64,000 nt of DNA, taken from Elusimicrobia bacterium RIFOXYA2_FULL_39_19 (GTDB lineage Bacteria; Elusimicrobiota; Endomicrobiia; CG1-02-37-114; XYA2-FULL-39-19). Location: contig MGVC01000005.1 in the NCBI GenBank assembly GCA_001800285.1, positions 18,476 to 82,475 on the forward strand. Reading direction: 5' to 3'. The position numbers and the translations under genes were made by a program. Under the pieces are notes generated by a model. It did no database searches, was not told the origin of the DNA, and saw only the letters and a program-made list of their open reading frames with translations. Below, one piece after another: positions 4,027 to 21,340 of this stretch. The number at the start of each line of letters is the position of its first letter. Positions within the stretch are counted from its first letter, which is position 1.

Positions 4027-4040
4027 TTTGTTTTAGGGGT

Positions 4041-6093: not shown

Positions 6094-6137
6094 ACAAAAT
6101 GAAATCATGGTAGCCATTGCCGCCAGAACACGATTGA

Positions 6138-6166
6138 TTGACAATAATCTTCACTATTTATATAAT
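6138..6166 (+). promoter_or_regulatory. Consensus sigma70 promoter, TTGACA-17-TATAAT
   Basis: TTGACA at 6138-6143, a 17 nt spacer, TATAAT at 6161-6166. An ATG at 6173 lies only 6 nt after the -10. Confidence 0.5.
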
Positions 6167-6172
6167 TCTTTT

Positions 6173-6403
6173 ATGGCAGGCGAAATAGGAATTTCCAAAT
6201 GGTTGTCGTATTCTTCAGCGCAAAAAATAAAACATTTAAAAACTACCGAAAATAAACGCGCCGTTAAACTGCAGAAATTAACCTACGCACAAGCTGTAAA
6301 ACAAACCCACCAGTTGCTCCGTTATGTAGATTTATTGCCGCATAAAACACGCAGGCATAAACCTGTTGGTATTGGAGTTACCCTTGGCACACATAAAGTT
6401 TGA
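6173..6403 (+). CDS. Hypothetical small basic protein (76 aa), possibly leaderless. The coding status is uncertain.
   Basis: In-frame ATG (M45 of the listed ORF 6041-6403) directly after the consensus promoter. The Lys/Arg-rich sequence has no motif I recognise. Confidence 0.3.
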   Translation: MAGEIGISKWLSYSSAQKIKHLKTTENKRAVKLQKLTYAQAVKQTHQLLRYVDLLPHKTRRHKPVGIGVTLGTHKV

Positions 6404-6426
6404 AGACGGCGTGCTATTATTTCTGC

Positions 6427-6981
6427 TTACTTTTCCTGCAATAAAATAACGTTGCAATTCTTGTCAAATTCCTTTAAAACTTCCTGGCTGACTCTTTTAT
6501 AAATCTCAAAATCTTCATACACTATGGCAAACACACCGCTTTCTGACGGCTCTGCATTAATTGAAAGAATAGTTTTACCGTCATTCCATTTCAGCGTGCC
6601 GTCATTTATGCAGGCAGGCCCATAAATTGCATTATAATAATCGCATATTTTTCCGTGAAACCCGCAAAATTCATCCATAGAATCATTATCATTTATGGAA
6701 TAAATTGTATGTATGCTGTACAACTGCCTGTCGTAAAATATCAGATTAACATATTTCACATATTTGTTATCAACGTCGTTTAACAGTACATTGCCCCAAT
6801 GTTTACTGCTTTCCATATCCTTTTTATAGTTGCCGGTAAAAACCAGGTTGCTGAAACTGGTACCCAGCGTGTAGCCGTAAAGAGTGCGTTTCAGGCTTGG
6901 GCTTGAACGAAGAAGGGCCTGAGCGTTTAACATACTCATAAAACCGGATAAAACAATTAAAAACATTATAATCTTTTTCAT
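6427..6981 (-). CDS. Hypothetical secreted protein, last gene of the giant-protein operon
   Basis: N-terminal signal peptide MKKIIMFLIVLSGFMSMLNAQA. No recognisable domain. Confidence 0.6.
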   Translation of the reverse strand: MKKIIMFLIVLSGFMSMLNAQALLRSSPSLKRTLYGYTLGTSFSNLVFTGNYKKDMESSKHWGNVLLNDVDNKYVKYVNLIFYDRQLYSIHTIYSINDNDSMDEFCGFHGKICDYYNAIYGPACINDGTLKWNDGKTILSINAEPSESGVFAIVYEDFEIYKRVSQEVLKEFDKNCNVILLQEK

Positions 6982-7070
6982 AAAGCCTCCATTTTTTATA
7001 ACACCCTCACCTCAATCCTCTCCGATGAGGAAAGGATGAAAACAGAAGTATAATTTTGTTTTAATAAGTC

Positions 7071-8186
7071 TTATGGTGCAATATTATTTTCTGGCATGGG
7101 TAAACTTTCCAGCTTTTCTTCAGCCGGCACAACTTCCGGAACTGCTTGTATTTGTGGTTGCGTTTGGGTTTCCGGCGTTTTTTCTTCCTTTGCTTCTGGT
7201 ACAGTTGTCTGTACCAAATCTTTGCTTTTATTATATTTAAAAGGCATAGTCAGCGAAAGCCTGTAAGTATTTCCTAAATATCCGTACGGAGAAAAAGAGC
7301 AGTCCACATTTCCATAAGCACTGTTTATCCCAAACCCTGCAGACAACCCGCTGTCTGCCTGGTTGCGCCCGTTAAAACCAAGCCTTAGTTTTAGAATATG
7401 CAGTAAAGTATATTCAGCACCCATATTGATTATTAGCGGAACATCTTTTGAAAAGGTTGTATCAAAAGCAAAAAGCAGGTTTTGTTCAGGCAGAGTGTAT
7501 GCCGCGCCCAGTTTAAAATTTAACGGCAACTCTTCCTGCGTGCTGTAGAATTTTGCCCTTGTGCCAAGGTTTTGCAATACAGCTCCTGACTGAAAAACCT
7601 CATTGAATTTATACAAACATCCAATATCAATTGCTATTGCCTGTGTTTTTACAAAATCAATTCTTTCGTTTATATATTTCACGCTTAACCCGGCAGACAG
7701 CTTATCATTTAGTTGTTTTCCGCTGCCTAATGTCACCGCCATATCCTGTAAAAGATACTCACTCAGGCCATAGCCATTTCTATTTGAAATAGTAGTCCTT
7801 TGAATTGTGCCCCAGTCAACAATATTTATACTGCCGCCAAAACCAGTATTGGACACAAAGGCAAAATACCGCTGATTTATTTTCTGCAGCCAGAAAGTGT
7901 GCATAAAGTTTACTTCACTTCTTTTTATAACAGCCAAGCCGGCAGGATTATAGTACAAAGCATTAAAATCATCCGCTACGGCTGTAAAGGCCCCGCCCAT
8001 ACCTGCAGGCCTTATGCCTGTATCCAGCCTTAAAAAACCAAAAGGCGTAGTACCCGCACCTTCAGCAGACAAACGGATAGGCGCAGATAAAACACAGAAT
8101 ATACCGGCACAGAAAATCCAGAGCAGAACTCTGCTGTGTTTTCCTTTTAGAAATGAAAGTGTATTTTTTATAATTACCAGTTTCAT
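7071..8186 (-). CDS. PorV/PorQ-like outer-membrane beta-barrel protein
   Basis: Signal sequence followed by GFLRLDTGIRPAGMGGAFTAVADDFNALYYNPAGLA, which is the signature I associate with PorV-family barrels. The sequence alternates in beta-strand-like fashion down to an aromatic-rich end, followed by a Pro/Glu/Gln-rich tail. Its start codon overlaps the giant gene's stop codon (ATGA). Confidence 0.6.
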   Translation of the reverse strand: MKLVIIKNTLSFLKGKHSRVLLWIFCAGIFCVLSAPIRLSAEGAGTTPFGFLRLDTGIRPAGMGGAFTAVADDFNALYYNPAGLAVIKRSEVNFMHTFWLQKINQRYFAFVSNTGFGGSINIVDWGTIQRTTISNRNGYGLSEYLLQDMAVTLGSGKQLNDKLSAGLSVKYINERIDFVKTQAIAIDIGCLYKFNEVFQSGAVLQNLGTRAKFYSTQEELPLNFKLGAAYTLPEQNLLFAFDTTFSKDVPLIINMGAEYTLLHILKLRLGFNGRNQADSGLSAGFGINSAYGNVDCSFSPYGYLGNTYRLSLTMPFKYNKSKDLVQTTVPEAKEEKTPETQTQPQIQAVPEVVPAEEKLESLPMPENNIAP

Positions 8187-11100
8187 TTTATTATCCCCAG
8201 CTTAAATACTTTTCTCTCTCCCGTGCTTGACACAATAACCGCCAGATACCCGCCGCTTGCTAATTCAGAGCCGTTATTATTTTTTACATCCCAGTTAAAT
8301 GTACCGGATGATTCAATATAACTGTCAAAAACCAGTTCACCGCTTACCGTATAAATATATATTTTTACCGCTTCCGTAAGATTTTCAAATACTATACCGG
8401 ACTGCGAATTGCCCTGGCTGTAGGGAATACCGTTATCATCAGCACCGTCATAAGGCACATACGGGTTCGGATAAACCAACACATTATCAAGGTTATTTGA
8501 AGCAGCTGCAAATATACCAAAAAGGCTGAAATGGCCTACTTGTATAGATGCCGTATTATTAATTTTGTCTACTGTTGTTTCCGAATCCTTTTTCCAAATA
8601 CGGGATGATTCATCATAATAAAGGATTTTTATATTTTCTTCCCGCATATCCGTATCATCAATTATTCCGTCATTATCTTCATCTGCGTAAGCTATAATTA
8701 TAGTTACATTTTTCAATAAGGTTTTCTGCCCGCTTGCCAATTCAATACTTCTGAACATTCCCGCGGATTTATATTTCCTGTCTGATGACGGAATTGAAAG
8801 CGGGTTAATGGCTACTTTTACCAAATCAAAAGAACCGGAAAGAGCCCCCTCCGGGATAATAATTTCGGTAAAATGTTTTTTATTAATATCAGCTAACTTA
8901 ATGCTGTTTTCTACATTGTTATATATTTTCTGTGTTTTTTCCGGGACCCCATTTTGTATTTTTTCTTCCATATCAGGGCTTATTCTGTCAATGACTACAT
9001 TAACCGTTTCCGGATTATTGTCATAATTTCCTGTCTTATCATAAGCTACACACCTTAACTGATAATTCCCCTGCAAGAAATCAGATTCATTGCTTACATC
9101 CCAAAAATAGTTATAAGGGTATGTTGCATCCGGATTGGTAAACAACGAACCAGTAGAATAAATATTATGCCATTCATCCTCAGAAGCCTTCCTGTACTGG
9201 AAATAAACATACCTGATATCAGAACTCTCACCTGATGTTATCTCGCTGGTCAACGTTATCCTGTTGCCGCTTATTTTCTCGCCTTCTTTAGGCGCTGTTA
9301 TTTCAACCTTTGGCAAATCCACATAGTTTGATATATTTGTTATCCTGAATTCTGAAGACTTATAAGGAAATGTATTGTTTTTATCTGAAACCATAGTCTG
9401 GGGCACAATAGTCAAACCGCTAAACTCTTCAAGCCGTATACCGGTATAATCATTTTCTGTTGAATTCATTGAAAGATCTGTATAACCCACATCTCCTACA
9501 ATATATAGTTTTACTTCAGCGGTTGATATATAAAGACCGGTTGATTCTATTGATAGACTTGCCATTCCTGAAACGAAATTCATGTTTGGATTGGCTCCTG
9601 TTGAATGTGGAATGGATGAAATAAATACATCAGTTGTTGCATCAAATTTTCCATCACCATACGGAAAAGCAGCACTGGTTGCCTCTTTCCAGATACTCAG
9701 GCACGAAAAATCACCCTGGCCCTTTCCCGGAATAAGCGATGTTTCTACCGTACCTGTTTGTTTAAGCGTTATATTGGTAAGTAAAGCATGGTTAGTATTA
9801 GTTTTCAGCCGTAATAACATAAGCGGAACATTTTTGCTTCCATATTTCGTATATACAGGGGCATAATTTTCTGATTTTACAATCAGCCCTATAGGGGTTA
9901 CCGGGAGCAGGCTGGTTTTACAGTAATCAAAACTTGTTGAATTGCCTAACTGTACGCCGGTATTGGTTTCAAGTACCAATAATGGAGAAACATCGTGCGG
10001 CAATCTTAACTTTATCCAGCCGCTGTCTGGAATTTTCAGGCCTATTGTATTTCCAGCAACCGCATTATCACCCATATCGTAAGCTATGAAATATGTTTGA
10101 TTTGATGGATTAAGTTTCTGTATGTTTGTCAGATAAATCATTTTTGTTTTGCTTAAATCATTGCTTAAATCAAACATATCAACTTTTTTAATTAAATCAC
10201 CGGAATTTAATTGTTTTCTTACGGTACCGTACTTCCCGCGTTCAACTATCCTTAAAAACGGTTTCGGCCCTGTTGGCGTAATTGTAGTTCCCGCCAGGGA
10301 ATACCTCATAATCTCATCGCCTGCTTTTACAAGCAGCTGCTGTTGCCCGGTAGGGAAAGTTCCTGTAAGAGTAATCGTTGACTCAACTATCAAATCAAAA
10401 GGCAGTGGTGTATATATTGAGATATAATTATAGTATACCCCATCGGAACATAACGAACTTATTTTTGTTTCTGCCTCTGAGATGCACTGGTCATCGGCGT
10501 CAAGAATGTTGTTGTAGTTTGCGTCTCTAAATATTTTTATATACTTCACATCAGAGTTTCTTCCCTCCGGTTTTGTCTGGTCCAAAGGGCCGCCTGTGCC
10601 GGTACGCTCAACCTGAATAGCGTCCCAGTTACAATTGGATTTATCGGTACGCAGTTTTAGCCTCATCATTTCTACGTTTGACTGGGACTGAAATGCACCG
10701 CTTGCAAAATGCACGTAATAAGCGCTGTCTGATACAGTAGCAGATACAGCAACCTGAACTTCCTTTATTTCTGCTGTCTGAGTTATAAACGGAGCTGTAG
10801 GCCAGAGAAATTCTACACCATCCGGAACCTGTACAGTAAAATATGTTTTGTCCAGAATACTGGCTCCTACTGTTTTACTTATTTGGGCAAATTGGCTGAT
10901 ATCATAAGTTAAATAGTATGTCTGTAGTGTAGCGGTTATGGTTCTGGCGTCATAATAGTTGTCTTCTGTTTTAAGCAACAGCGTGGCAGCCTTTTCAGTG
11001 AACGTATCACTGCCATAAGTTATTAGGCCGCAAGGCTGGCTGTTTATCATAACTGTTGATTCAAACACGCTGTATTCAGAAGTAGATGTAATTACTTTCC

Positions 11101-14100
11101 AGATTTTAATCTTACTCACATCAGCATCTACTCCTGTCCCGGTTAAATTAACTTTTATGCTTTCCCATAAAGCGGTATTTCTATTTGTTTTCATTGACAA
11201 TTGTATTACTGGTACATTTTCTGCATAACGTTCTACAGTACTCATTAATTCTGATGAGGGGGTTATATACACAGTATCAACGGTTGCTACAATCGGCATA
11301 TTAGCAGTTTTTATAGGAAAGGCAGGTATCTCACCTAATCCAATAGGCACATAAGTTGATACTCTGTGCCGCATCTCTTCTGACGGATGATTTACGCCTA
11401 TTTTGTCCTCTCCTGTTATTTCTGCGCCAATTATTTCATTTTGCCAGGAAATAAGCGGATGAGAGAATTTAGCCGACGGGCTGACATCATAAGTTATGAA
11501 ATATGCCGTTGGCGTGGTAGTAACAAGTATATAACCCCTGTTAATTGCCGGGTCATTTAAGTAAAGGCGGCCTCTGGAATTATCATAAACGCCTGAACCA
11601 ACAAGCGTGTCAGCAGTTACAATTCCCCTGTATTCAGGTGAAGCAAATCTATCCAGCCTGCTGTTTCCATTATCATCACGGTAAACTTTTATATTTAGTA
11701 AATCACTGTCTGCACCGAATAATAAGTATGACGGCGTGGTACGGGTTATGGTAATGGTACCCATTTCCACCTGAAAACCGTCAGCCCATAAATCAAGTTT
11801 CTCTACTGCAAAGTTTTTCACTCCCTGAGTTACCTGCACGCCAAAAACTACACCCGATGAATGACTGGCAGCAAAACTGCCCAGAACACCACGGGTAATG
11901 CCTGTAATAGAATTTGCTGTTTTTCCCGTGTATTTTATAATTTCACTTTCTATAACTGCATAACCGCTTGCAGGAATTGCCAGTGTTGGCGTAGGACGGC
12001 CCAGGGAATCATTTGAAAACAGATAAAGGACATCTGCGCCTGCACTTAAATTTCCACTTAACCGCGGAACCTCGTAGGTTGAAAGTGTGCCTGTTTCTTT
12101 TGGGTCATCATCAGAAAAAATCGGGGCTGATTTTACAAATATAGTCCTGGGTGATGATGCTATTGTTTTTAAAGTGCTTTTCCAGGGAAGGCCGATGTCA
12201 TCCAGATTATCGGGTTCTGATATGAAATCATCTTCGGTTTGAACGAGATTATCTTCATCTGTCGGGAAGCTTTCTGCTGTAAGTCTTACACCAAGGTTTT
12301 TTGGGTCACCGGTTCTGGGGTTAGTGGTTAATGCAGTTTCGCTGATATCGTAAGTTATAAAGTATCTTTGCGATTTTGCTACTCCGGCTCTGGCGGCAGT
12401 AATTATTTCCTGTACCTTACTTGAATTAAATCTGATAAGGGTTGCTAACGCATCGCCGGCATTACTGAATGTTCCAGAACCTACCAAAACATCATAGTCT
12501 GTGCCTGCATAAAAATAAGGGGTTACCGGACTTTTATTTAACATTCTGTCATTATTTGCGTCATACCAGACTTTAACTACCGGTACTTCCTCCTGCACGG
12601 CGCCGCCATCGTAAGAGGCTGTACCGGTGGAATATATTCTGATTGCATACCACAAAGCTTCAGACAAATCCGTTTCCAGGGTAAACTGCGCCATAACATT
12701 ATCTACTGAACCCTGAACTAAATATTGTGTATAAATATAATCAGTTGGTTTCACCAATACATCATCAGGATATTCTTTAACCTGTGACACGTAAGATTCA
12801 GTCCACCCTGTTGCCGCCCATTCAGTGCCAATCCACTGGTTATTTCTAGGGCTTCTTAAACCTACCTGTGCCTGCACATTGCCCATATAATCCGGAGAAT
12901 TGATGGTGAAGTAACCGGTTGATGGAATTTCCACGCCCAGTTTAAGCGACGCATCTACCGTACAAACAGGGCTGTAATCAAAGGTAATAAAATAATTTTT
13001 AGGTGTTTGCCGGATTTCCTGCACCCCACTAACGTCACCTACTATATCCAGCCGTGCCGGGCCAGACACAATAGCTCCGCTGGTATGGGATTTAGCGGTA
13101 GTTTTATCCTGCCCGCGGACAACACCTGTAAACAAATTATTATCTTCATCAACCCCGGTATAAGTAACTATTTCAAGTTTTGACGGGTCCCCGTTATCAT
13201 CAATAATTAATTTACCCGGCGCCTTAGGCACAGAACAAAATGGCGGGAAGAAAACCCCAATATCAGCTACCTCAATTACACTGGCAGACTCATTAATACT
13301 TTCAGCTAATTCTGATACAGGAAACTCCATAAGTGAAAATTGCGGGTTCTGGTCAACCACCATCGAATCGGTAACTTCGAACATTCCGTCATTGTTGCTG
13401 TCATACCACAGCTGTATTTTATCTACATCTGTAGGCAGGCTGAGTGTTCCTTCCGGCACGCCTGATGTGGCATTTCTGTATATAGACCTATCAAGTTTCA
13501 GTCCGCCCCACAGGCCGGTTCTCTGAACTGTTGCCATGGTAAGTTTCATTACCGTTATGTTTGCATCACCCTGGGTTACTACCCCGGTTACAGTAAAATT
13601 CACGCTGGATACACTGGTTTCCTGTTTGTTTACGTTATAAACATTCAGTTCATCAACTGTGGCTGTCACTACAACTTTGGTAGATTCAATAGAGGCATAA
13701 GACTGCATAGCACCTTCTAATAAGGTTATGCCGTTTATCTGGGCACCGTGCGTATAACCGGGAGTAGCGGAATTTTCAATTTTGTAGGTTATAAAAAAGT
13801 ATCTGCTGGTACAATCAATTAACTGAGGTGTTGAAAGCATACACTGGGCGCTTCTGTCTGTAAACGGTACCCAGTTTGTCAACGCATCATCGCCTCCGGG
13901 TTCTAAAGCTCCGTTGGGGTTTGAACCAGCATCTATCCTGCCGTCATTCGGGCTGGAATCTTTTCCGTCCATATATATTTTTACGCCTACTATGTCATAA
14001 TCCTGGCCGGTGCCTGTTCTGCCTACTTTTATTTCGCTTATCGCCCCCTGAAACATAGGGGCGCTGAATGCTACCCTTAACATTCCAATATCAGATTCAC

Positions 14101-17100
14101 CCTGCTGCATGTAGGAGTAAGTAATAGGCTGTGTGGTGCCTTCAAGTTGGTAATAAGCGGCAATATCCGTTAACTGCGCATAAACTTTCGGCGGTGATTT
14201 TTCTACTGCCCAGGTGGTGGTAACTATTTCAAAATTGGCCTGGGACACACCAATAGTTCCTGAAGTTTGTATAGACTGGTAACTCTGCAACCGTAACCCA
14301 AAATATGTACCGGTAGTTGCGCTGGTGGCTATGCGCACTGCAATGAAATACGTTTTAGGTAAAGTATTTACTGAAACTTCTGGTTTTACGCTTAAATTTC
14401 TGAAGTACCAGGCGTCAGTGCCCGCATCATACTCAGCATCACAAAGTTTAGTGTCTGTTGGTTGGCCGCCACTTACAAGTTCCGGGTCAAAGTAATAGTT
14501 GCCGCTTGCGTCATAGTAAAGACTCATCTTACTAATACTGCTGGAAGGCGTATTGCCAAATTTTTCTACTTTTATCTGTTCCAGTTTTTCTGTAAGATTG
14601 GCTTCCACAGGCAGGGTTACCATAGTAAGTCCGGCCATACCAAACGGCTGGAAGTTTTCTACAATATCCCCGTCACCCTGATACACTTTCTTAGAAATAA
14701 CTCTTGATAGATAATTAGAACCTCTCAACAAATTTTCCGGGTCTAATATCGGTGTTACTTTTATGCCTGAAGTTACCAGGTTCGCATCTGAATGTGCTGT
14801 TTCAACTCTTGTGCTGTCATTAGTCCAGCCGTACACTACACCATCCGCAGGATAATCCAGCGCCTGAGTAACAGGAGATGCATAATGAGTAGCGCTGATT
14901 TTTAGTGATTCCTGCATCTGGTTGATTACCTGCAACCCCTGCCAGACACCGCTGTCACTTTCTGTATAAGCATAATAGGTTGCACTGCCGGGCATAGCTC
15001 TTAGTGTTACTGCGGTAGTGGAGCCGGTATGTGCAAACTTTATTATACCTTTATAATACTGACCGTTGGTGCTATCGCCGGATGCCACATTACCAAACCG
15101 GTCTCTGGCTTTTACGGTAACCGTGCCGTTTGAATTTACCGGCAATGGATTTGTTAAGGGATAACTGTGGTGAATTGTAAAAAACCTTGCAGGAGCAGGA
15201 GTGATATACTGGTTCTGTGTTGCAGATACTAACTGTATTGAACCGCAGGTTCCCTCAGCTCTCAATGTACTGGTACCGGCTTTTGTATCAAAGAAATATA
15301 TGGAATGCTCTGAAGAACCCGGGGGTATAATACCCGGCAGGAAACCGCCCTCGCAAATACTGGGCCAGTCAGCGCTAAGCATTAAATTTTTTAAAGGGTT
15401 TTCACCGGCACGGGCAGAAGTTGAATTTGTACAGGTATAAACTATGCTTGTAGCATCAGAAGAAATAGTAACATTATCTGACTGGTCCCTTAACTGGATA
15501 GTTATCACTGTAACGGTTTGAACACGGTTTGAATAAGAGCTTAATGGAACAGGTAAAACGGCTGATGAAAACGGATTGTAGCCTTGCACGGAATATGTAG
15601 AAACAACACTTCCTAAATTTCCGGAGCCGGTATACGCAATGGTTGTACCAGCAATTAATCTTCTTGATTCCGTTATAAAAACAAAATGATGGGGGTTCCC
15701 CGCAACTACTGAATAAGTCTGCACAGCTACAGCCCAATCTGTCTTTGCCGGGTTCTGCGCAGTTATTTGAAAATTCCCCAGATTGGTATCTATCATGTAA
15801 AAACTGGTGGTGTCATCACCTATATTTAACGTAACAATATCAACCGCAGGTTTTGCTACCCACCCGGAAGTAATATTTGGCGAAGCAAACCTCACATTCC
15901 CTGTACCGGTAGAATTAAGGTCAAAGATACTCATAACTTCTTCACCTGTAATTACCGGTGACGGGTTGGAAAACTTGTCCTGTGTCTGCAGTAAAAAAGC
16001 TGATGATGTAGTACCGGCCGCCAATATCTGATGAGATGATATTATGGCCAGTTTCTTTATTGGTGATGCCGTTATCGGTACGTATTGGCCGGAGCCCGGT
16101 GTTTCCCAACTTCCGCTTGAAGCTTTTACATGAGGCATGGTGGAAGCAGCAATATTATATGGCGGATAAGTTTTTGATGCTTTTGTATCTGCATACCAGA
16201 ACTGGGTGGCATATTGGCCGGCTGAAATTGAAGCCGTTGAGGTGTGCATCCACGGTGAAGATGTAAGTGAGAAGGAATAATTTCTGCCGTATTCCGTAGT
16301 GGCAATAGTATCCACTTCGCTTTCAAACGTTAACCTGTGCAAATAATCTATGCGCAATGAATTACCTGCCCCGGAATCACTCTGCAGGTTCATGGTAGTG
16401 TCTACGTTTACAGCTTTCGGGTTGCCGTAAGTATCCTGTGTTTCTATTTCAAGCACCTGCAAGCTATTCTGGTTGTTATAAACTATACCCGCCAGTAACG
16501 GCAGTGTGGTTGAAGGAATAACATCAAAACCTACCTGAGTTATAGCGCCCGGGTTTACATTAAATGTTGTTGAACCAACATAGATACCATACTCAACAGA
16601 AGCTGTCCATTTACCTATTGACGGACGCGCAGGCAGAGCGGCGGTAGCCGTGCCCTGAGAACCGTCTTCGCCTGCAGGCCATGAAGCATACATATCTGAA
16701 TACCTGAATGATGCCTGTGAATTGGCTGCAGGTACCGGCCATACTGCCGCGGACCATATAGGTATAGCTACATCATACATGCTCAGCATAGTATCGGTAG
16801 TTTTATTCCAATATTTCTTCTGTGAATTTAGTACAGAAGGTGAATCAGTTTTCAGCTGGGTGCCGATAGAAAGAGAAACTATGTTTGTTTCACCCGTCGG
16901 GTTATTCCAGTAATCGCGTTTTTCAAAAGTAAATACGGTAGATTTTATGTTACCCGCAGAAGCTTCAATGTCTGACGGTGTAGTTACAAACTGGAAGCGG
17001 TATAAATCACCGCCGGTAGTCATAATGTTTACAGATTTACCTGTAATGGTTGCACCCGCAGCGGTAGATACCTGCACCTTGGCATAATGGCCTCCGGTAG

Positions 17101-20100
17101 TGGATACCTCATAGTATAATTCTTTGCCTAGGCCGCCCACTTCACCATTGCTGTCGGTTGTAGTAGAAGTAATTACATTGCCGGAAGCATCTTTTATAGT
17201 TCCTGAAGAACCAAATACATCCACTACACTTAATACCGCGGAAATATTTGAACTTGAAACCTGGTTTTCATAAGAGTCGGCAATAAACGCTTTTACCTGC
17301 TGACGGTTAGGCACGCCGCCGGAGATGCCCGCTTTTACATAGATCGGGTCGGTCCACGGGCTTGGTATAGCAAATGCAAACTTGCTGGGGTCTCCCGGCC
17401 TTACTTCTATTACCGGTCTGTTTGAATATCCTGACCTATTGGCATCTATCAGGGAATCTGTGCTCTGGCGCCAGTTTATCCAGCGGGTACCAGCCTTTTT
17501 TAGTTGAATGGTAAATAAGTGTGAACCGGCATCTGCGTCAGTAAACACATAGTGTTCTCCGCCGCTGCCGGGTAGAGGTTCTGGATTCTGCAGTGAATTA
17601 TCAAAGTCCGTAGGAGCAATTTCTGCCAAGAACTGCACTTCACCGGTGTATCTGGTGCTTCCGGTAGAACATATATTGTGGTATCTGTCTTTTACATTTA
17701 TTCTTACATTGTAATCTGAACCAGCATAAGCCCAGGTAGAGCCGCGCACAGGGTCAATATAGCTTGTACCCTGCATGTAGTAGGCGGCGTCCGGCCATAT
17801 TCTTATCTGGCTGGATTCTTTAGAAGTATATTTTACAGCCGCGGTTGACCAGTCAACCGACACGCAGGTCCAGGAAGAAGAAGCAGTCAACGGCCTTACG
17901 CTGAAGGCTCTTGAACCGAAAGCCAAGCACTGTATGGTTGGCTCAGAATCCTGATAATCCCAGGTGGTTACCGTGCAGGAAGGCATATCTACACCTGACA
18001 TAATCCTGTTATACCAGATATCTGTTAATACAACATCTATGTTAAAGGCATCCCCGGCTGTATGCACAGTTGGCTGGGTATCGGTCCTGCCGTAAGGAGC
18101 AATGTTCCATTTTCCGGGAACGTGGGTTTCACCCGGCACCACCACAAGTAAAAATGCCGGCGAAGATGGATTTACTGTAAACTGCCTGCTGCTGACATCT
18201 GTAATATATCTCGGGTCAGAACCATCAACATCCTTGGTCCAGAGCATATGCCAGGTAGCAGCAGTTTTGAGCTGTATTTGAAAAGTATTGCTGGCGCTTA
18301 TGTCGCCGAGTGGTGACGTGGATGAATTGGCATCATAAGGGTCATTGGTTTCTACCGTCACTTCAGGCATGGTTATTCCGGGTAGTGACGGAAATATTCC
18401 TTTATTATAAGTATTGTAGTAGTTATCTACTAAGTTTACTGTTACTTCAAACACAGTACCGGCAGTCTGGGTTACCGGAGAACCTGTTTTACCGTTAGCA
18501 GTGCTAACATTTAAACCCCATGCCGGCGTTTCACCAGGAAGTATTATCTGGAGATGGTTCGGAGTGCCCGGTAGTACAGTGAAAGTGGATACGGTATAAT
18601 CCGGTGCACTGTTTGGATATTTTGTATAAGTACCATAAAGTTCTTCCGCAACTGCATAGTGGTAAGTGGCGGCACGTTTTAAACCAGTAGTGAAACTGGC
18701 TGTCTTGTAACCCGGGTCTGTACCGGTAATTGTTATCTGAGCTGGTTCTACATTATAAGGATCCGTAGGAGTGTATAGAACAATGGTTCCCTCTGCACCG
18801 GATACAATATTGAAGTTGCTGTCTGTAATGGCCACAGTAACATCAAATGGGGCACCAGCGGTTTGTTGTGATGGACTGCCTGTTTTACCATAAGGTGAGT
18901 TCATGTCAAAGTTTTGGCCTGGTAAAAGAACCAGAAGTTTTGAAGCTGTGTTGCTAACAACCGGGACCTTTGAGCTGGGCTGGGAATTAACCATAATTCC
19001 GGGATATCCCTCACCTTCCACCCAGCTAAATGCCGACATTCTTATACGCCAGCCGGTATTGCTGGATGTTGAAAAAACCCATTTTTCAGAATCATCTAAA
19101 ATATATTGTCCGTTTGAAACCCATATACTTCTCCCAGTTACCTGCGGGTCGTTAGGGTCACCGTCTGCTCCATCAGACATAAGTGTTAGAGTAGGATTTT
19201 CATCAGTCTGGTTATAACATTGGTCCAGGCATAAAACAGTTGTTTTAAAACCCACACCAGCAACCTGTGCTGTTGGGTTGGAAGCTTCCGTTTTTCCCGG
19301 TTGAGAGCCGGTAACTTTACCGTCAACATGGGTTTCACCCGGTACCAATATCTGAATTCTGTAGGGAACATTTGTAGTAATGGCTATGCTCTGGGTATAA
19401 TCATATTTATAATTACTGCAATAATCTGTAGTTGCTGTGATGATAGTATTTTTCTTTGTTACAAGCGTAATGCCAAATGTCGTAGTCCCGGAAAAAAGAG
19501 TTTTTGTACTGGGGTGCGTGTCATATAAATCATCGGTAATTATGCTGACATTTATTCCGGTAGTAGTTACTGAATTGTAATAGTCATCACATGCATCTAC
19601 GGTTACATTAAACGATTCTCCCGCTTTATGGCTGGTTGGATAATTATTGGACATTCTGCCTCTTGTAGAAATATTACCGGCATCCGGTAATTCCCCTGGA
19701 GCAAGAATTCTCAATCTTTTAGCACTTCCTGGAATTATGTTAACAATATTTGAATCATATGTACCCAGGCTTCCGGTTGCCCTAACTGTCCAGGTGGAAG
19801 CAGTATTCATCATTACGTTATTCCACACATTCTGTCCCATAGTTAAGCCCTGGCTTCTGGAATAACTACAATAAGGGTCTGTTACCGTTACAGACACCCC
19901 TCCCATTACAGCAGTGGAACATAAGTTATAATAATTATCCGTAACACGCACAGTTACAGGAAACACTACACCAGCTGTCTGAAAACTAACGCTATAATTT
20001 TTTCCTCCGGTTCCGTCACCAATTGGCTGCTGGGTTACATTTTCTCCATAAGGAGGCTTGCCGGGAGCAGGCACTTCATTCGGCAAGATTACATGGTAAC

Positions 20101-20917
20101 GTGTAACTAAATTCGGATAAACCCTTATTTCAGAACTTGTACCGGTTGATAACCAGATATCGTTGCCATTATAATTAAGAGCTTCTGTTGGATATGCTTT
20201 TACATAATGCGTTGCATAACCTGTCAGACCTGCCATTTCTGCATTAAAAACAGTTATGGTTGTTATACTTGAACCATTAATCAAACAAACATAATTTGTT
20301 TTTGATCCATATTGATCGGTAGATTCAACATACACTATGGGGTTTGCGTCAGAAATAGTATTCCATTGTAAATCTGTGGCTTTTATTGTTATGGCAAATG
20401 GTTGGCCTGCAGTAAATCTTGAAATCGGTGTTCCTGATTTTCCAGTTGAAGAACCCGGATTTTGTGTTTCGCCGGGAACTAAAATAAGCAACTTTGATGG
20501 ATCGGAAAGCGGGTAGGCTGTTGTATTATTTGAAACACCTGAAAATAATTCCAAGGGTCCTGAAGAGACCCAGATTCTAAAATAGTATAACTTATCGCTT
20601 TGAAGGCCTGTTATTACGTAATTCTGTCTGTTCCCGGAATTAACAGAACCTGTTGATAATACCAGATTTCCGCTTGTGCCCGTACTCCAGGCAATACTTT
20701 CAAAAGTTGATTTTTGAATTTCATACCTGCTCCCAACGGGTATAGTAAATGGGCCTGGATAGGTCCAAATTAAACGGACCTCATAAGAGTTCTGACCGGT
20801 AACAGCCGAAAGATCAGTTACCGCTAAAGATTGAGCAAATATGTTTTGAATACTTATAACAAGTATAAGAATACAAAACATAATTCTGATATTTATCACT
20901 TTATTCTTAAACATCAT
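8183..20917 (-). CDS. Giant (4244 aa) secreted cell-surface repeat protein / putative adhesin with a T9SS-type C-terminal sorting domain
   Basis: Uninterrupted 12.7 kb ORF with a GAGGAAAAATG RBS. Features: signal peptide (aa 1-28), an FN3-like segment (aa 33-120), two internal module families (listed separately below), Ig-like segments, and a C-terminal LVYPNP...GGYLAVIVSSTGERKVFKLGIIK. Confidence 0.9.
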   Translation of the reverse strand: MMFKNKVINIRIMFCILILVISIQNIFAQSLAVTDLSAVTGQNSYEVRLIWTYPGPFTIPVGSRYEIQKSTFESIAWSTGTSGNLVLSTGSVNSGNRQNYVITGLQSDKLYYFRIWVSSGPLELFSGVSNNTTAYPLSDPSKLLILVPGETQNPGSSTGKSGTPISRFTAGQPFAITIKATDLQWNTISDANPIVYVESTDQYGSKTNYVCLINGSSITTITVFNAEMAGLTGYATHYVKAYPTEALNYNGNDIWLSTGTSSEIRVYPNLVTRYHVILPNEVPAPGKPPYGENVTQQPIGDGTGGKNYSVSFQTAGVVFPVTVRVTDNYYNLCSTAVMGGVSVTVTDPYCSYSRSQGLTMGQNVWNNVMMNTASTWTVRATGSLGTYDSNIVNIIPGSAKRLRILAPGELPDAGNISTRGRMSNNYPTSHKAGESFNVTVDACDDYYNSVTTTGINVSIITDDLYDTHPSTKTLFSGTTTFGITLVTKKNTIITATTDYCSNYKYDYTQSIAITTNVPYRIQILVPGETHVDGKVTGSQPGKTEASNPTAQVAGVGFKTTVLCLDQCYNQTDENPTLTLMSDGADGDPNDPQVTGRSIWVSNGQYILDDSEKWVFSTSSNTGWRIRMSAFSWVEGEGYPGIMVNSQPSSKVPVVSNTASKLLVLLPGQNFDMNSPYGKTGSPSQQTAGAPFDVTVAITDSNFNIVSGAEGTIVLYTPTDPYNVEPAQITITGTDPGYKTASFTTGLKRAATYHYAVAEELYGTYTKYPNSAPDYTVSTFTVLPGTPNHLQIILPGETPAWGLNVSTANGKTGSPVTQTAGTVFEVTVNLVDNYYNTYNKGIFPSLPGITMPEVTVETNDPYDANSSTSPLGDISASNTFQIQLKTAATWHMLWTKDVDGSDPRYITDVSSRQFTVNPSSPAFLLVVVPGETHVPGKWNIAPYGRTDTQPTVHTAGDAFNIDVVLTDIWYNRIMSGVDMPSCTVTTWDYQDSEPTIQCLAFGSRAFSVRPLTASSSWTCVSVDWSTAAVKYTSKESSQIRIWPDAAYYMQGTSYIDPVRGSTWAYAGSDYNVRINVKDRYHNICSTGSTRYTGEVQFLAEIAPTDFDNSLQNPEPLPGSGGEHYVFTDADAGSHLFTIQLKKAGTRWINWRQSTDSLIDANRSGYSNRPVIEVRPGDPSKFAFAIPSPWTDPIYVKAGISGGVPNRQQVKAFIADSYENQVSSSNISAVLSVVDVFGSSGTIKDASGNVITSTTTDSNGEVGGLGKELYYEVSTTGGHYAKVQVSTAAGATITGKSVNIMTTGGDLYRFQFVTTPSDIEASAGNIKSTVFTFEKRDYWNNPTGETNIVSLSIGTQLKTDSPSVLNSQKKYWNKTTDTMLSMYDVAIPIWSAAVWPVPAANSQASFRYSDMYASWPAGEDGSQGTATAALPARPSIGKWTASVEYGIYVGSTTFNVNPGAITQVGFDVIPSTTLPLLAGIVYNNQNSLQVLEIETQDTYGNPKAVNVDTTMNLQSDSGAGNSLRIDYLHRLTFESEVDTIATTEYGRNYSFSLTSSPWMHTSTASISAGQYATQFWYADTKASKTYPPYNIAASTMPHVKASSGSWETPGSGQYVPITASPIKKLAIISSHQILAAGTTSSAFLLQTQDKFSNPSPVITGEEVMSIFDLNSTGTGNVRFASPNITSGWVAKPAVDIVTLNIGDDTTSFYMIDTNLGNFQITAQNPAKTDWAVAVQTYSVVAGNPHHFVFITESRRLIAGTTIAYTGSGNLGSVVSTYSVQGYNPFSSAVLPVPLSSYSNRVQTVTVITIQLRDQSDNVTISSDATSIVYTCTNSTSARAGENPLKNLMLSADWPSICEGGFLPGIIPPGSSEHSIYFFDTKAGTSTLRAEGTCGSIQLVSATQNQYITPAPARFFTIHHSYPLTNPLPVNSNGTVTVKARDRFGNVASGDSTNGQYYKGIIKFAHTGSTTAVTLRAMPGSATYYAYTESDSGVWQGLQVINQMQESLKISATHYASPVTQALDYPADGVVYGWTNDSTRVETAHSDANLVTSGIKVTPILDPENLLRGSNYLSRVISKKVYQGDGDIVENFQPFGMAGLTMVTLPVEANLTEKLEQIKVEKFGNTPSSSISKMSLYYDASGNYYFDPELVSGGQPTDTKLCDAEYDAGTDAWYFRNLSVKPEVSVNTLPKTYFIAVRIATSATTGTYFGLRLQSYQSIQTSGTIGVSQANFEIVTTTWAVEKSPPKVYAQLTDIAAYYQLEGTTQPITYSYMQQGESDIGMLRVAFSAPMFQGAISEIKVGRTGTGQDYDIVGVKIYMDGKDSSPNDGRIDAGSNPNGALEPGGDDALTNWVPFTDRSAQCMLSTPQLIDCTSRYFFITYKIENSATPGYTHGAQINGITLLEGAMQSYASIESTKVVVTATVDELNVYNVNKQETSVSSVNFTVTGVVTQGDANITVMKLTMATVQRTGLWGGLKLDRSIYRNATSGVPEGTLSLPTDVDKIQLWYDSNNDGMFEVTDSMVVDQNPQFSLMEFPVSELAESINESASVIEVADIGVFFPPFCSVPKAPGKLIIDDNGDPSKLEIVTYTGVDEDNNLFTGVVRGQDKTTAKSHTSGAIVSGPARLDIVGDVSGVQEIRQTPKNYFITFDYSPVCTVDASLKLGVEIPSTGYFTINSPDYMGNVQAQVGLRSPRNNQWIGTEWAATGWTESYVSQVKEYPDDVLVKPTDYIYTQYLVQGSVDNVMAQFTLETDLSEALWYAIRIYSTGTASYDGGAVQEEVPVVKVWYDANNDRMLNKSPVTPYFYAGTDYDVLVGSGTFSNAGDALATLIRFNSSKVQEIITAARAGVAKSQRYFITYDISETALTTNPRTGDPKNLGVRLTAESFPTDEDNLVQTEDDFISEPDNLDDIGLPWKSTLKTIASSPRTIFVKSAPIFSDDDPKETGTLSTYEVPRLSGNLSAGADVLYLFSNDSLGRPTPTLAIPASGYAVIESEIIKYTGKTANSITGITRGVLGSFAASHSSGVVFGVQVTQGVKNFAVEKLDLWADGFQVEMGTITITRTTPSYLLFGADSDLLNIKVYRDDNGNSRLDRFASPEYRGIVTADTLVGSGVYDNSRGRLYLNDPAINRGYILVTTTPTAYFITYDVSPSAKFSHPLISWQNEIIGAEITGEDKIGVNHPSEEMRHRVSTYVPIGLGEIPAFPIKTANMPIVATVDTVYITPSSELMSTVERYAENVPVIQLSMKTNRNTALWESIKVNLTGTGVDADVSKIKIWKVITSTSEYSVFESTVMINSQPCGLITYGSDTFTEKAATLLLKTEDNYYDARTITATLQTYYLTYDISQFAQISKTVGASILDKTYFTVQVPDGVEFLWPTAPFITQTAEIKEVQVAVSATVSDSAYYVHFASGAFQSQSNVEMMRLKLRTDKSNCNWDAIQVERTGTGGPLDQTKPEGRNSDVKYIKIFRDANYNNILDADDQCISEAETKISSLCSDGVYYNYISIYTPLPFDLIVESTITLTGTFPTGQQQLLVKAGDEIMRYSLAGTTITPTGPKPFLRIVERGKYGTVRKQLNSGDLIKKVDMFDLSNDLSKTKMIYLTNIQKLNPSNQTYFIAYDMGDNAVAGNTIGLKIPDSGWIKLRLPHDVSPLLVLETNTGVQLGNSTSFDYCKTSLLPVTPIGLIVKSENYAPVYTKYGSKNVPLMLLRLKTNTNHALLTNITLKQTGTVETSLIPGKGQGDFSCLSIWKEATSAAFPYGDGKFDATTDVFISSIPHSTGANPNMNFVSGMASLSIESTGLYISTAEVKLYIVGDVGYTDLSMNSTENDYTGIRLEEFSGLTIVPQTMVSDKNNTFPYKSSEFRITNISNYVDLPKVEITAPKEGEKISGNRITLTSEITSGESSDIRYVYFQYRKASEDEWHNIYSTGSLFTNPDATYPYNYFWDVSNESDFLQGNYQLRCVAYDKTGNYDNNPETVNVVIDRISPDMEEKIQNGVPEKTQKIYNNVENSIKLADINKKHFTEIIIPEGALSGSFDLVKVAINPLSIPSSDRKYKSAGMFRSIELASGQKTLLKNVTIIIAYADEDNDGIIDDTDMREENIKILYYDESSRIWKKDSETTVDKINNTASIQVGHFSLFGIFAAASNNLDNVLVYPNPYVPYDGADDNGIPYSQGNSQSGIVFENLTEAVKIYIYTVSGELVFDSYIESSGTFNWDVKNNNGSELASGGYLAVIVSSTGERKVFKLGIIK
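8186..8494 (-). other. C-terminal sorting domain (T9SS type A CTD / FlgD-Ig-like), aa 4142-4244 of the giant protein
   Basis: NLDNVLVYPNPYVP...VKIYIYTVSGELVFDSY...FNWDVKNNNGSELASGGYLAVIVSS...KVFKLGIIK. This matches the PNP start, the strand pattern and the terminal K-x-x-K typical of Por-secretion tails. Confidence 0.6.
9398..14644 (-). repeat. Eight divergent ~180-290 aa protein modules (aa ~2092-3840)
   Basis: Each module has [LM]xLx(8-12)Wxx[IL]xVxxTGTG..., then [IV]K[IVL][WY]xDxNxN/DGxxD, and ends in x-YF[IL]TYD[IV]S....G. The YF motif occurs at aa 2189, 2373, 2641, 2851, 3138, 3333 and 3608. Asp/Asn-rich loops occur at aa 2134-2144, 2313-2329, 2503-2514, 2783-2794, 3077-3089, 3460-3476 and 3750-3760. 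Confidence 0.7.
17768..20491 (-). repeat. Seven tandem ~120-140 aa protein modules (aa ~143-1050)
   Basis: Motif: LxI[LV][LVA]PGE-x(5-20)-GK[TS]G.P..QTAG..F.VTV...D..[YW]N. It starts at aa 143, 275, 402, 520, 660, 789 and 922. Examples: LLILVPGETQNPG..GKSGTPISRFTAGQPFAITIKATDLQWN and HLQIILPGETPAW..GKTGSPVTQTAGTVFEVTVNLVDNYYN. Confidence 0.75.
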
Positions 20918-21129: not shown

Positions 21130-21168
21130 AAAAAACCGAGTGAAAGCATTGGAAAATGCCACTCGGTT
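21130..21168 (-). terminator. Intrinsic terminator in the giant-gene leader, candidate riboswitch expression platform
   Basis: The minus strand reads AACCGAGTG-GCATTTTCCAATGCTTT-CACTCGGTT followed by TTTTAAA: a perfect 9 bp stem plus a U tract. It lies ~70 nt after the aptamer and ~210 nt before the start codon. Confidence 0.65.
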
Positions 21169-21234
21169 GAGTTTACGACACTGTAACCTTACTGCGGTTT
21201 TTGGCGGCCTGGCGGTCATTGGACATTCCTCTTT

Positions 21235-21340
21235 TTTAGGCGTCTGCGCTTCAACTCCCTAGAACCGTTGGAGTCAGGCGTCCTTTAGACCCATAGCTTT
21301 GCGCCCGTCGGTTTCCCGGCGTTTGCTTTTATCAATTTTT
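21235..21340 (-). promoter_or_regulatory. c-di-GMP-I (GEMM-I) riboswitch-like aptamer
   Basis: The minus strand reads AAAAGCAAACGCCGGGAAACCGACGGGCGCAAAGCUAUGGGUCUAAAGGACGCCUGACUCCAACGGUUCUAGGGAGUUGAAGCGCAGACGCC. It lines up with the Vibrio Vc2 aptamer as I recall it (GGGCAAACCAUUCGAAAGAGUGGGACGCAAAGCCUCCGGCCUAAACC...). Shared elements: GCAAAC, a 6 bp hairpin capped by a GAAA tetraloop, G(A)CGCAAAGC, and a GGxCUAAA receptor-like segment. The long 3' helix closes as GGGUCU/AGAC(G)CC. Confidence 0.65.

Follow-up and report, generated by a model that had tools for sequence, protein, structure and literature searches.

The locus analysed here raises the question of what a single gene of 12.7 kb builds in an uncultured groundwater bacterium of the Elusimicrobiota, and how its product would reach and stay at the cell surface. 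Judged from its sequence, the 4244-residue product is a cell-surface protein of this organism and one member of a conserved family of giants that are labelled "hypothetical". Our preferred reading, to which we give a probability of roughly 0.55, is that it forms a giant acidic secreted surface fibre, most likely a second-messenger-regulated adhesin that is anchored by a C-terminal sorting-type domain (CTD) and a PorV-family partner. The sequence-only reading had suggested two unnamed module families that make up a giant adhesin or S-layer-like fibre, and the results support that proposal without a choice between adhesin and S-layer.

Integrity and N-terminus of the giant ORF

All coordinates refer to the window, the whole 64-kb stretch of DNA analysed, and every feature given with coordinates lies on the minus strand. 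The giant ORF (8183..20917) begins with ATG and stays open without interruption for 12.7 kb, encoding 4244 aa (462 kDa, pI 4.84; Ser+Thr = 20%). Its C-terminal 8272 nt and 6752 nt recur with 100% identity and no gaps in two assemblies made independently from the same population (the Logan assembly of SRR3989308 and JGI 3300002146), the share of the ORF identical in both being the C-terminal 65%. The earlier claim of one intact 12.7 kb ORF is borne out, with an uninterrupted frame in both assemblies over the C-terminal part that they cover. The N-terminal third (~4.4 kb, with the family-1 repeats described below) had no counterpart in other assemblies when metagenomes were scanned with the N-terminal 400 aa, a metagenome scan with the exact riboswitch sequence gave no matches, and the contigs of other samples end within the giant gene. 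Since the ORF contains no tandem repeats at the DNA level, repeat collapse in assembly is unlikely. Recent tandem amplification of the modules was also ruled out, by the lack of DNA repeats, by an identity of 18-35% between modules and by the collinearity of orthologues.

A Sec-type signal peptide is predicted at aa 1-29 (20831..20917; ...IQNIFA/QS) from Kyte-Doolittle hydropathy, with aa ~5-33 as the only stretch of the 4244-aa protein in which the value exceeds 2; it has a basic n-region and an AQS-type site, and the cleavage site was placed by inspection. It is followed by an FN3-like domain at aa 32-116 (20570..20824) with a sub-threshold match to Pfam fn3 (23.6 bits, E 6e-5, cutoff 25). 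The signal peptide proposed earlier thus held up on hydropathy and inspection, and the FN3-like segment proposed with it stayed below threshold. Solved structures searched with the whole 4244-aa protein gave no match.

Two module families outside the curated libraries

The family-1 array consists of seven modules of ~130 aa at aa 135-1053 (17759..20515), which were delimited by an HMM made from their own copies and by self-BLAST. The HMM finds seven full modules with per-domain E values of 1e-39 to 1e-51, which are circular because it was built from these copies, and it also matches weakly a degenerate eighth module at aa 1063-1115. In pairwise self-BLAST the modules share 25-45% identity (best E 1.5e-11). 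Both the number of modules and their consensus (KLQxLxPGETxxPG...GKTGxPxxQxAGxxFxVTVxxxDxYWN) agree with the seven modules and the motif described before. Family 1 gave only sub-threshold single matches in Pfam, to Big_13 (2 of 39 members), Big_3_5, Big_15, Big_1 and Filamin, while a PDB profile search returned FN3 monobodies with E about 0.5 at best, and word-indexed searches with family-1 profiles returned 1 and 4 short fragments only. The middle region (aa 1054-2059; 14741..17758) has no Pfam matches and is composed of about seven degenerate beta-rich modules, each of which keeps a D-x-[YF]-x-N motif at a spacing of about 130-160 aa. Weak as these signals are, they make divergent bacterial Ig-like domains the probable identity of family 1 and of the middle region.

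The second array (family 2; aa 2060-3862; 9332..14740) contains eight beta-jelly-roll modules of ~180-290 aa, located at aa 2060-2236, 2237-2422, 2423-2716 and 2717-2905 (modules 1-4) and at aa 2906-3200, 3201-3384, 3385-3662 and 3663-3862 (modules 5-8). The count of eight stands as first read from the sequence; the start of the array moves from aa ~2092 to about aa 2060, and modules 3, 5 and 7 carry an additional inserted domain of about 70-100 aa. The modules share the consensus ...QG..N..M..L.L.T....LW..IKV.RTGT....DV..IKIW.DAN....YFITYDIS. (best self-BLAST E 6.5e-8) and a Ca-binding-like loop, DxNGxGxxD. This loop had been ascribed to every module; it is present in the family, with the conservation D(59/67)-x-N/D(47/67)-G-N/D(49/67)-G(38/67)-x-F-D/N/E(46/67), and modules 6 and 8 have a degenerate version of it or none. 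The inserted small domains are of one type, with the motif E-I-x-Y...RG..GT.A..H..G given for module 3, and lie at approximately aa 2540-2625 (module 3; 13043..13300), aa 2960-3030 (module 5; 11828..12040) and aa 3520-3585 (module 7; 10163..10360). They weakly resemble the phage tail-tip protein J (8rk3_o, E 0.019) and match Pfam Rcc01698_C below threshold in 5 of 30 members.

Neither family reached a curated Pfam or NCBIfam cutoff, whether the whole protein, isolated modules or single members (39 of family 1, 67 of family 2) were searched, which agrees with the earlier statement that neither is a named domain. In all 4244 aa, a Big_7 bacterial Ig domain at aa ~3869-3947 (9077..9313; PF17957, 26.9 bits, cutoff 24.1, E 7.5e-6) is the sole Pfam domain above the gathering threshold, so the modules do not all fall into well-known families and the protein is not reduced to a standard adhesin.

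A structure model of family 2 from a 67-sequence alignment is all-beta and confident (pLDDT 82.6, pTM 0.83); it replaced a model of module 4 from only 8 aligned internal copies (pLDDT 54), which was discarded. The nearest folds to this model are sialidase N-terminal domains, CBM32, CBM6 and F5/8 type C domains, with a TM of about 0.4-0.48 at 10-14% identity to the sialidase N-terminal domains and of about 0.45 at 10-13% identity to carbohydrate-binding domains. At the sequence level, BNR_assoc_N (PF14873) is matched below threshold by 5 of 67 modules (E 0.02-0.1) and by the homologue P0014 (E 0.0057). PF14873 is the N-terminal domain of the GH33 BNR-repeat sialidases of Bacteroidales, for example those of P. 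gingivalis (8gn6), T. forsythia (NanH, 7qxo) and B. thetaiotaomicron (BTSA, 4bbw). The V-K-[LIV]-[YW] and Y-F-[IW]-[IT] strands of the sialidase domain and family 2 are in register in sub-threshold matches, but the sialidase sequence lacks the DxNGxGxxD loop (one alignment, Sialidase26), and family 2, unlike the sialidases, occurs as eight tandem copies with no catalytic domain attached. According to the model, the family-2 modules adopt a beta jelly roll and are remote kin of BNR_assoc_N, with a relation at the fold level that is real but distant. Such distant likeness to carbohydrate-binding domains is no demonstration that the family-2 modules bind sugars.

A conserved family with one fixed and one variable array

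A family-2 profile found 914 homologous cluster representatives at E<=1e-3 among 1.84 billion, far above chance. They were found by exhaustive profile search only, a word-indexed search with aa 2231-2900 being empty. The named top matches are "hypothetical" giants of 2000-7000 aa from Elusimicrobiota, and collinear orthologues are 29-44% identical across 2000-4000 columns. For example, P0005 and P0038 are collinear with the 4244-aa protein over aa 338-3878 and aa 140-3874, respectively, the family-1 region included. As far as sequence comparison goes, both module families recur beyond this gene and mark out a family of giant proteins conserved in Elusimicrobiota. The comparison of copy number across relatives, which had been suggested as a check, shows that 29 of 51 complete-looking homologues have eight modules of family 2, and that the copies of family 1 range from 1 to 29.

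The C-terminal domains and the PorV-family neighbour

Behind the Big_7 domain lies an unassigned ~150-aa domain (aa 3990-4140; 8498..8950) with an EF-hand-like DEDNDGIIDD loop and a weak match to EF-hand_8 (E 0.004), which is shared with the homologues P0072, P0128 and P0147. The protein ends in a sorting-type domain at aa ~4169-4244 (8186..8413) that starts with VYPNPY. In isolation this CTD scores 23.0 bits with FlgD_ig, 21.1 bits with CHU_C and 16.1 bits with Por_Secre_tail (PF18962), all below the cutoff of 27. On the 4244-aa protein, TIGR04183 reaches 11.1 bits (cutoff 23), short of a type A CTD of the type IX secretion system (T9SS), and TIGR04131 (type B CTD) has no match at E<=1 in the NCBIfam scan. 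A related YPNP...IGV[IV][HR] domain ends all homologues inspected, and that of P0014 clears the FlgD_ig cutoff (31.1 bits). The C-terminal sorting domain named in the sequence-only reading is therefore consistent with these signals, and in this protein it stays below every curated cutoff. Other ways of anchoring and export were rejected: an RTX/T1SS adhesin of the LapA type has no HemolysinCabind or related match at E<=1, and autotransporter, SLH or LPXTG anchoring has no such matches either (Pfam and NCBIfam, whole protein).

Directly downstream lies a gene for an outer-membrane beta-barrel of the PorV/PorQ family (371 aa; 7071..8186), whose ATG overlaps the TGA of the giant gene (ATGA). The barrel matches NCBIfam NF033709 (PorV_fam) with 163.1 bits (cutoff 90) over model positions 1-325 of 326, and Pfam UPF0164 also matches it. 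Because the equivalog cutoffs are unreached (PorV 70 vs 250, PorQ 107 vs 220), it is classed as a member of the PorV/PorQ family with no assigned orthologue. PorP/SprF is absent among its five NCBIfam matches at E<=0.01. Genome contigs searched with the PorV-like protein yielded distant Bacteroidota PorV genes only.

The window contains no T9SS component other than the PorV/PorQ-family gene and no Mot, ExbB or FliG-like genes; the remaining scanned ORFs are housekeeping genes. A mobile-element or phage context was ruled out by neighbours for an Mrp-type antiporter, hydrogenase maturation, nucleotide biosynthesis and two-component regulators. Among seven homologue loci, a PorV-family gene is also found 3' of the giant gene at two distant ones (L012 and L013) and is missing from five, one of which (L015) has no flanking DNA at all. 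At L012 and L013, the genes downstream of the giant gene on the same strand encode PorV-like+TPR, MotA_ExbB, MotB_plug/OmpA and FliG_M/FliG_C(+TPR) proteins, and at L009 MotB/OmpA and MotA/ExbB genes lie directly downstream on the opposite strand, so Mot genes are near the giant gene at three of the seven loci.

This arrangement resembles the T9SS of Bacteroidota in several respects. T9SS cargo has an N-terminal signal peptide and a C-terminal beta-sandwich of ~80 aa starting with YPNP, as the 4244-aa protein does, with FlgD_ig, CHU_C and Por_Secre_tail below threshold here. The giant gene and the translationally coupled PorV/PorQ-family gene are reminiscent of T9SS cargo-partner pairs such as sprB-sprF, which is said to combine a giant protein, a CTD and a cognate outer-membrane partner. 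SprB is giant and repetitive as well, but its repeat modules are unrelated. T9SS partners are PorV for type A CTDs or SprF/PorP-like for type B, whereas the barrel here is of the PorV/PorQ family and not PorP/SprF; the host belongs to the Elusimicrobiota rather than the Bacteroidota, and the window holds no SprA/Sov, PorK/L/M/N or PorU. We know of no established T9SS in Elusimicrobiota, and in the literature on T9SS or giant adhesins in this phylum we found nothing specific to this protein family.

A GEMM-I riboswitch in the leader

Riboswitches of the c-di-GMP-I (GEMM-I) class typically govern genes for adhesion, pili and motility. An aptamer of this class (21200..21337) lies in the leader of 597 nt that precedes the giant ORF and matches Rfam RF01051 over the full model (1-87 of 87) with 61.3 bits (gathering 35; E 1.5e-9 over the whole window), with a 54-nt insertion within one hairpin loop. 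At RF01051 model position 11, directly 5' of the first G-C pair, which by our own numbering of Vc2 we take to be the equivalent of G20, the aptamer has A in place of the G of c-di-GMP-specific aptamers. Variants of this riboswitch class with G20A bind cGAMP or both ligands (PMC6140456), and because of this A the ligand of the present aptamer may be cGAMP or both. An intrinsic-terminator-like hairpin (ACCGAGUG...CACUCGGU then U6; 21130..21167) is located 33 nt past the aptamer and is present in both the MFE and the centroid fold; with a loop longer than 8 nt, it escaped a simple terminator scan. The hairpin is a putative expression platform of the riboswitch. The sequence-only reading had overlooked the riboswitch with its hairpin, the coupled PorV-family gene and the MotA/MotB/FliG-like genes that some relatives have downstream. 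No RF01051 riboswitch was found at four homologue loci, three of which have no upstream DNA.

Discussion

Taken as a regulated adhesin, the system might work as follows. Transcription would cross the leader with the riboswitch and the terminator hairpin, and we therefore propose that synthesis tracks the cellular level of a cyclic dinucleotide; the ligand would be either c-di-GMP or, in view of the A found where Vc2 has G20, 3',3'-cGAMP, and the switch may act in either direction. The 462-kDa chain would be exported through Sec by its predicted signal peptide, and its YPNP-type CTD would be recognised by the coupled PorV/PorQ-family barrel, which may deliver the protein to the surface or retain it there, in analogy to the PorV or PorP/SprF partners of type IX secretion cargo. 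The eight Ca-loop jelly-roll modules, three of them with the phage-tail-J-like insert, would then sit close to the membrane and might bind glycans, while about fourteen Ig-like modules, species-variable in number, and the FN3-like tip would point outward.

Among known systems, adhesins controlled by c-di-GMP (LapA, CdrA, Bap/Esp) likewise have a long stalk of tandem beta-sandwiches in variable copies, a surface anchor and predicted Ca loops, and riboswitch-controlled adhesins and pili (Clostridioides difficile; Vibrio cholerae GbpA) have a GEMM-I leader like that of the giant gene. The giant protein differs from these systems in having no RTX/T1SS signal, LPXTG or autotransporter barrel, in its anchor-proximal conserved block, in its unnamed domain families and in the A of the aptamer at the G20-equivalent position. 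A conserved eight-module block at the presumed cell-proximal end is also unusual for an adhesive tip.

This last point suits another reading, in which the protein is structural, an S-layer- or sheath-like canopy of the envelope with a self-assembled, Ca-stabilised lattice of the eight modules near the outer membrane, Ig-like spacers and a primary role other than adhesion. Family 2 held at eight across deep divergence, with position-specific orthology and inserts at modules 3, 5 and 7, would fit a defined quaternary assembly better than a flexible stalk; the Ca-binding-type loop is conserved, and the block lies next to the anchor. Yet a cyclic-dinucleotide riboswitch is unexpected for a constitutive layer, SLH or other S-layer anchoring motifs are absent among the Pfam matches, and there is no sign of high expression. 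We consider an envelope layer unlikely.

Slightly less likely again is a multivalent scaffold for glycan capture or for contact with prey or partner, whose eight CBM-like modules would attach to polysaccharide or to another cell's envelope and serve nutrient acquisition, or epibiotic or predatory contact. The nearest folds are carbohydrate-binding modules, and the inserts recall the tail-tip J motif of phage host-recognition proteins. West-Roberts et al. (bioRxiv 10.1101/2023.11.21.568195) describe very large, mostly unannotated proteins, predicted to be extracellular, from Omnitrophota and other PVC-related phyla including Elusimicrobiota, and interspecies recognition or cell-wall degradation is proposed for such giants of Omnitrophota and Elusimicrobiota there and in PMC12057145. 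But the giants of the Omnitrophota type in the preprint are far larger (at least 10,000-30,000 aa, against 4244 aa here), its searched text does not mention T9SS or PorV, and PMC12057145 does not describe this family. Besides, the protein has no catalytic, toxin or peptidoglycan-hydrolase domain (Pfam and NCBIfam), and the fold similarity is distant.

The genes next to the homologues at L012, L013 and L009 would allow a third reading, improbable to a further degree, of a motor-coupled mobile surface adhesin or dedicated cargo, functionally analogous to SprB in Bacteroidota gliding. Through the PorV-like barrel the fibre would be connected with an inner-membrane stator of the MotA/MotB type and with a FliG-like/TPR protein, and these would move or export it through the proton-motive force, and giant size, CTD and cognate outer-membrane partner would be the parallel to sprB-sprF. 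This has to be set against the window, with its lack of Mot, ExbB and FliG-like genes, and against the presence of Mot genes at just three of seven loci; Mot/Exb/Tol stators are widespread and their adjacency could be due to chance or be Tol-Pal-like, no GldK/L/M/N or SprA homologue was observed, and the barrel belongs to the PorV/PorQ rather than the PorP/SprF family. It is hardly credible that faulty assembly created the long ORF or that it is a pseudogene in decay: its N-terminal ~4.4 kb recurs in no other assembly and other contigs break within the gene, but against this stand the open frame of 12.7 kb, the C-terminal 65% identical in two independent assemblies, the absence of DNA-level repeats to mis-assemble, and P0005 and P0038, collinear over almost the full length including the family-1 region.

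Beyond the second-messenger-regulated adhesin that we prefer, it is conceivable, at rather long odds, that the family represents a phylum-wide surface organelle of Elusimicrobiota not described before, a fibre with an invariant core of eight Ca-jelly-roll modules, exported or anchored by a dedicated PorV-like barrel independently of the Bacteroidota T9SS, physically coupled to Mot/FliG in many lineages and controlled by a riboswitch that possibly senses cGAMP. If this is true, the PorV-TPR/MotA/MotB/FliG-like coupling would be a new machine for motor-driven secretion or surface motility. If the protein is merely another adhesin, what is gained in practice is the definition of two new domains and a correction of the annotation.

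In the genomes of candidate phyla, no part is annotated as poorly as the giant surface proteins. Two domain families absent from curated libraries are now delimited here, one of them with a confident fold, and a collinear Elusimicrobiota family of 2000-7000 aa, merely "hypothetical" in databases, is defined. How CTD-type sorting operates outside Bacteroidota is a question raised by the PorV-family gene coupled to the giant gene and by the Mot/FliG-like genes of relatives. The fixed eight-copy array beside a variable one leads to the hypothesis of a defined assembly plus an adjustable stalk, and the riboswitch offers a testable handle on when such a fibre would be deployed by an uncultured groundwater bacterium.

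Architecture of the giant gene and its two module families

The open reading frame at 8183..20917 (-) is open over 4244 codons from an ATG start and encodes a protein of 462 kDa (pI 4.84, Ser+Thr 20%), whose sole strongly hydrophobic stretch by hydropathy, aa ~5-33, is read as a putative signal peptide. The C-terminal 8272 and 6752 nt of the gene recur at 100% identity with zero gaps in contigs of two further assemblies (the Logan assembly of SRR3989308 and JGI 3300002146) from the same population, which is associated with the Rifle aquifer. Metagenome scans found the N-terminal ~4.4 kb in no second assembly; the collinearity of orthologues runs through this part. No DNA repeats were detected within the gene by Tandem Repeats Finder.

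The sequence-only reading had described a giant ORF built from two module families, and this is real, with both arrays delimited by self-comparison and HMM search. Family-1 copies are 25-45% identical at ~130 aa spacing over aa 140-1060 (E down to 1.5e-11), and the HMM built from them places seven modules in aa 135-1053, followed by an eighth, degenerate one (aa 1063-1115). Eight family-2 modules tile aa 2060-3862. The stretch that separates the two arrays, aa 1054-2059, repeats the motif D-x-[YF]-x-N every ~130-160 aa and probably consists of more beta-sandwiches of this kind in degenerate form.

Scanning the whole protein against Pfam and NCBIfam gave only sub-threshold matches (fn3, FlgD_ig, CHU_C and Por_Secre_tail), and in a piecewise scan the sole match above the gathering score was Big_7 at aa ~3869-3947 (26.9 vs 24.1 bits). 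Scattered matches to Big_13, Big_3_5, Big_15, Big_1 and Filamin among 39 family-1 modules were sub-threshold, as were GEVED (7 modules) and BNR_assoc_N (5 modules) among 67 family-2 modules scanned singly. PDB sequence searches with the whole protein and with both family profiles returned nothing significant. Both families stay below Pfam and NCBIfam thresholds, which bears out the earlier reading, in which neither was recognised as a named domain.

Fold of family 2 and the inserted domain

When only the eight internal copies were supplied as alignment, AlphaFold modelled a family-2 module at pLDDT 54; with 67 diverse modules aligned, it gave an all-beta domain at pLDDT 82.6 and pTM 0.83. Foldseek with this model ranked Bacteroidales GH33 sialidases first (4fj6, 4q6k, 6mrv, 7qxo and 4bbw; E 1.4e-4 to 1e-3, TM 0.40-0.48). 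The best PDB sequence match of the family-2 profile is the N-terminal domain of Sialidase26 (residues 39-166, E 0.41), in which the V-K-L-Y and Y-F-W-I strands are in register. From the predicted model we conclude that the family-2 module is a beta jelly roll, a remote relative of BNR_assoc_N and no member of it. The consensus loop D-x-N/D-G-N/D-G-x-F-D, with positions kept in 38-59 of the 67 modules, is presumably a Ca2+-binding loop of the DxDxDG type. In the giant protein, modules 1-5 and 7 still show this loop and modules 6 and 8 have lost it; Ca2+ may stabilise the protein.

Modules 3, 5 and 7 owe ~100 aa of extra length to an inserted domain, marked by the motif E-I-x-Y...RG..GT.A..H..G and located on the (-) strand at 13043-13300 (aa ~2540-2625), 11828-12040 (aa ~2960-3030) and 10163-10360 (aa ~3520-3585), respectively. 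A profile built on 30 copies of this domain matches, at borderline significance (E 0.019), the phage tip attachment protein J (8rk3_o), which shares the motif E-I...RG..T.A.H..G, and 5 of the 30 copies give sub-threshold matches to the gene transfer agent domain Rcc01698_C. Possible kinship to either is a lead rather than an assignment. The motif recurs in homologues (64 matches among the 150 best profile matches).

Homologues and module copy number

An exhaustive search of 1.84 billion cluster representatives with the eight-module family-2 profile recovered 914 proteins at E<=1e-3, of which 195 reach E<=1e-30; many of the proteins recovered are 2000-7000 aa long. Ten top-scoring homologues were looked up, and every one with a named source comes from Elusimicrobiota or Endomicrobiia MAGs, under names such as "hypothetical", "fibronectin type III domain-containing" and "VCBS repeat-containing". 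Weaker matches to partial modules occur in Planctomycetota and Wallbacteria. Collinear orthologues include P0003 (44% identity over 2030 alignment columns), P0005 (35% over 3683) and P0038 (29% over 4008).

Of the 51 homologues that carry a YPNP motif at the C-terminus and have 250 aa or more before the final array begins, 29 contain exactly eight family-2 modules and 5 contain seven; in a subset, the modules match those of the giant protein position by position, including the insertions at 3, 5 and 7. Family-1 copies range from 1 to 29; the design therefore combines an adjustable array at the N-terminus with a block fixed at eight modules.

C-terminal domain, PorV-family neighbour and genomic context

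No curated model scores the C-terminal sorting-type domain (CTD) of the giant protein above its threshold. Since all homologues inspected nevertheless end in a clearly related YPNP...IGV[IV][HR] domain, and one passes FlgD_ig, we describe the protein as resembling CTD-sorted surface proteins in the way it works, without classing it among T9SS substrates. Before the CTD lies an unassigned ~150-aa domain (8498-8950 (-), aa 3990-4140) that contains the EF-hand-like loop DEDNDGIIDD, ends in the strand ...VGHFSLFG and is common to few homologues only (P0072, P0128 and P0147); FN3 domains occupy this position in most family members.

The ATG of the next gene, 7071-8186 (-), overlaps the TGA of the giant gene, and its product is an outer-membrane barrel of the PorV/PorQ family (NF033709, 163 bits vs a cutoff of 90). 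Seven homologue loci (L009-L015) were inspected. In L012 and L013, a gene for a PorV-like barrel fused to TPR repeats directly follows the giant gene (blastp to the PorV-family protein of the window, E 3e-19 and 1e-23), and then come MotA_ExbB, MotB_plug/OmpA and a large FliG_M/FliG_C(+TPR/MgtE_N) protein (L012 25389-30045; L013 8156-12640). MotB and MotA adjoin the giant gene in L009 (11679-13187). Neither PorV-like nor Mot genes lie beside it in L010, L011 and L014, and L015 is without flanks. The stator/FliG-like cluster, which looks non-flagellar, recurs in related Elusimicrobiota loci and is absent from the window. L014 carries two giant genes head to tail (1-4937, >3978 aa; 5001-20390, the 5129-aa P0038). 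Next come genes for a HEAT/PBS-like repeat protein and a CHASE2-guanylate-cyclase-type signalling protein.

On the same strand, 89 nt downstream of the PorV-family gene, lies a 184-aa ORF (6427-6981 (-)) whose N-terminus looks like a signal sequence and which all six contigs retrieved for this population carry. Neither Pfam nor NCBIfam matches it, and it could form part of one operon with that gene. The rest of the window is chromosomal housekeeping (Mrp-type antiporter, hydrogenase maturation and pyrimidine biosynthesis genes, and regulators). Within the hydrogenase maturation genes, a 392-aa protein (2848-4026 (-)) looks like an unusual fusion of N-terminal HupF/HypC with Radical_SAM, plus a weak match to BATS, and adjoins a second radical-SAM/BATS protein (4041-5498) and HypA (5649-5999).

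Leader riboswitch

A c-di-GMP-I riboswitch occupies 21200-21337 (-) in the 597-nt leader of the giant gene; it matches the full model at 61.3 bits (gathering score 35), and one hairpin loop of the aptamer has a 54-nt insertion. A terminator-like hairpin with U6 stands 33 nt past the aptamer, at ~21167-21130 (-). Immediately 5' of the aptamer's first G-C pair the alignment has an A, at a position which we take, in our own numbering, to be equivalent to G20 of Vc2. Natural cGAMP riboswitches have A at the G20 position, and G20A variants bind both c-di-GMP and cGAMP (PMC6140456). The ligand is therefore uncertain and could be 3',3'-cGAMP or both dinucleotides. The sequence-only reading was right on the protein architecture and missed both this riboswitch and the coupled PorV-family gene.

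Proposed role

Starting from the established architecture, family-2 fold class, family distribution, riboswitch aptamer and overlapping PorV-family neighbour, we propose that the giant protein would be exported via Sec and its CTD recognised by the cognate PorV-family barrel, by analogy with T9SS cargo and its PorV or PorP/SprF partners. It would then be displayed on the cell surface with its C-terminus membrane-proximal, and would probably act in adhesion under cyclic-dinucleotide control. The CTD-type end and the PorV-family partner gene resemble those of T9SS cargo, although the CTD is sub-threshold and the host lies outside Bacteroidota.

Three other roles carry lower weight, namely a structural lattice, a motor-coupled adhesin, and a scaffold for glycan or prey contact; they are retained because the constant block of eight modules and the Mot/FliG genes beside some homologues are still unexplained. 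The cautious earlier reading as a giant adhesin or S-layer-like fibre holds, and we regard the product as a giant fibrillar protein, probably surface-displayed, of an already known kind. New here are two undefined domain families, an architecture conserved at the level of the phylum, control by an element that is unusual here, and a PorV-family partner coupled to the gene in a phylum other than Bacteroidota.
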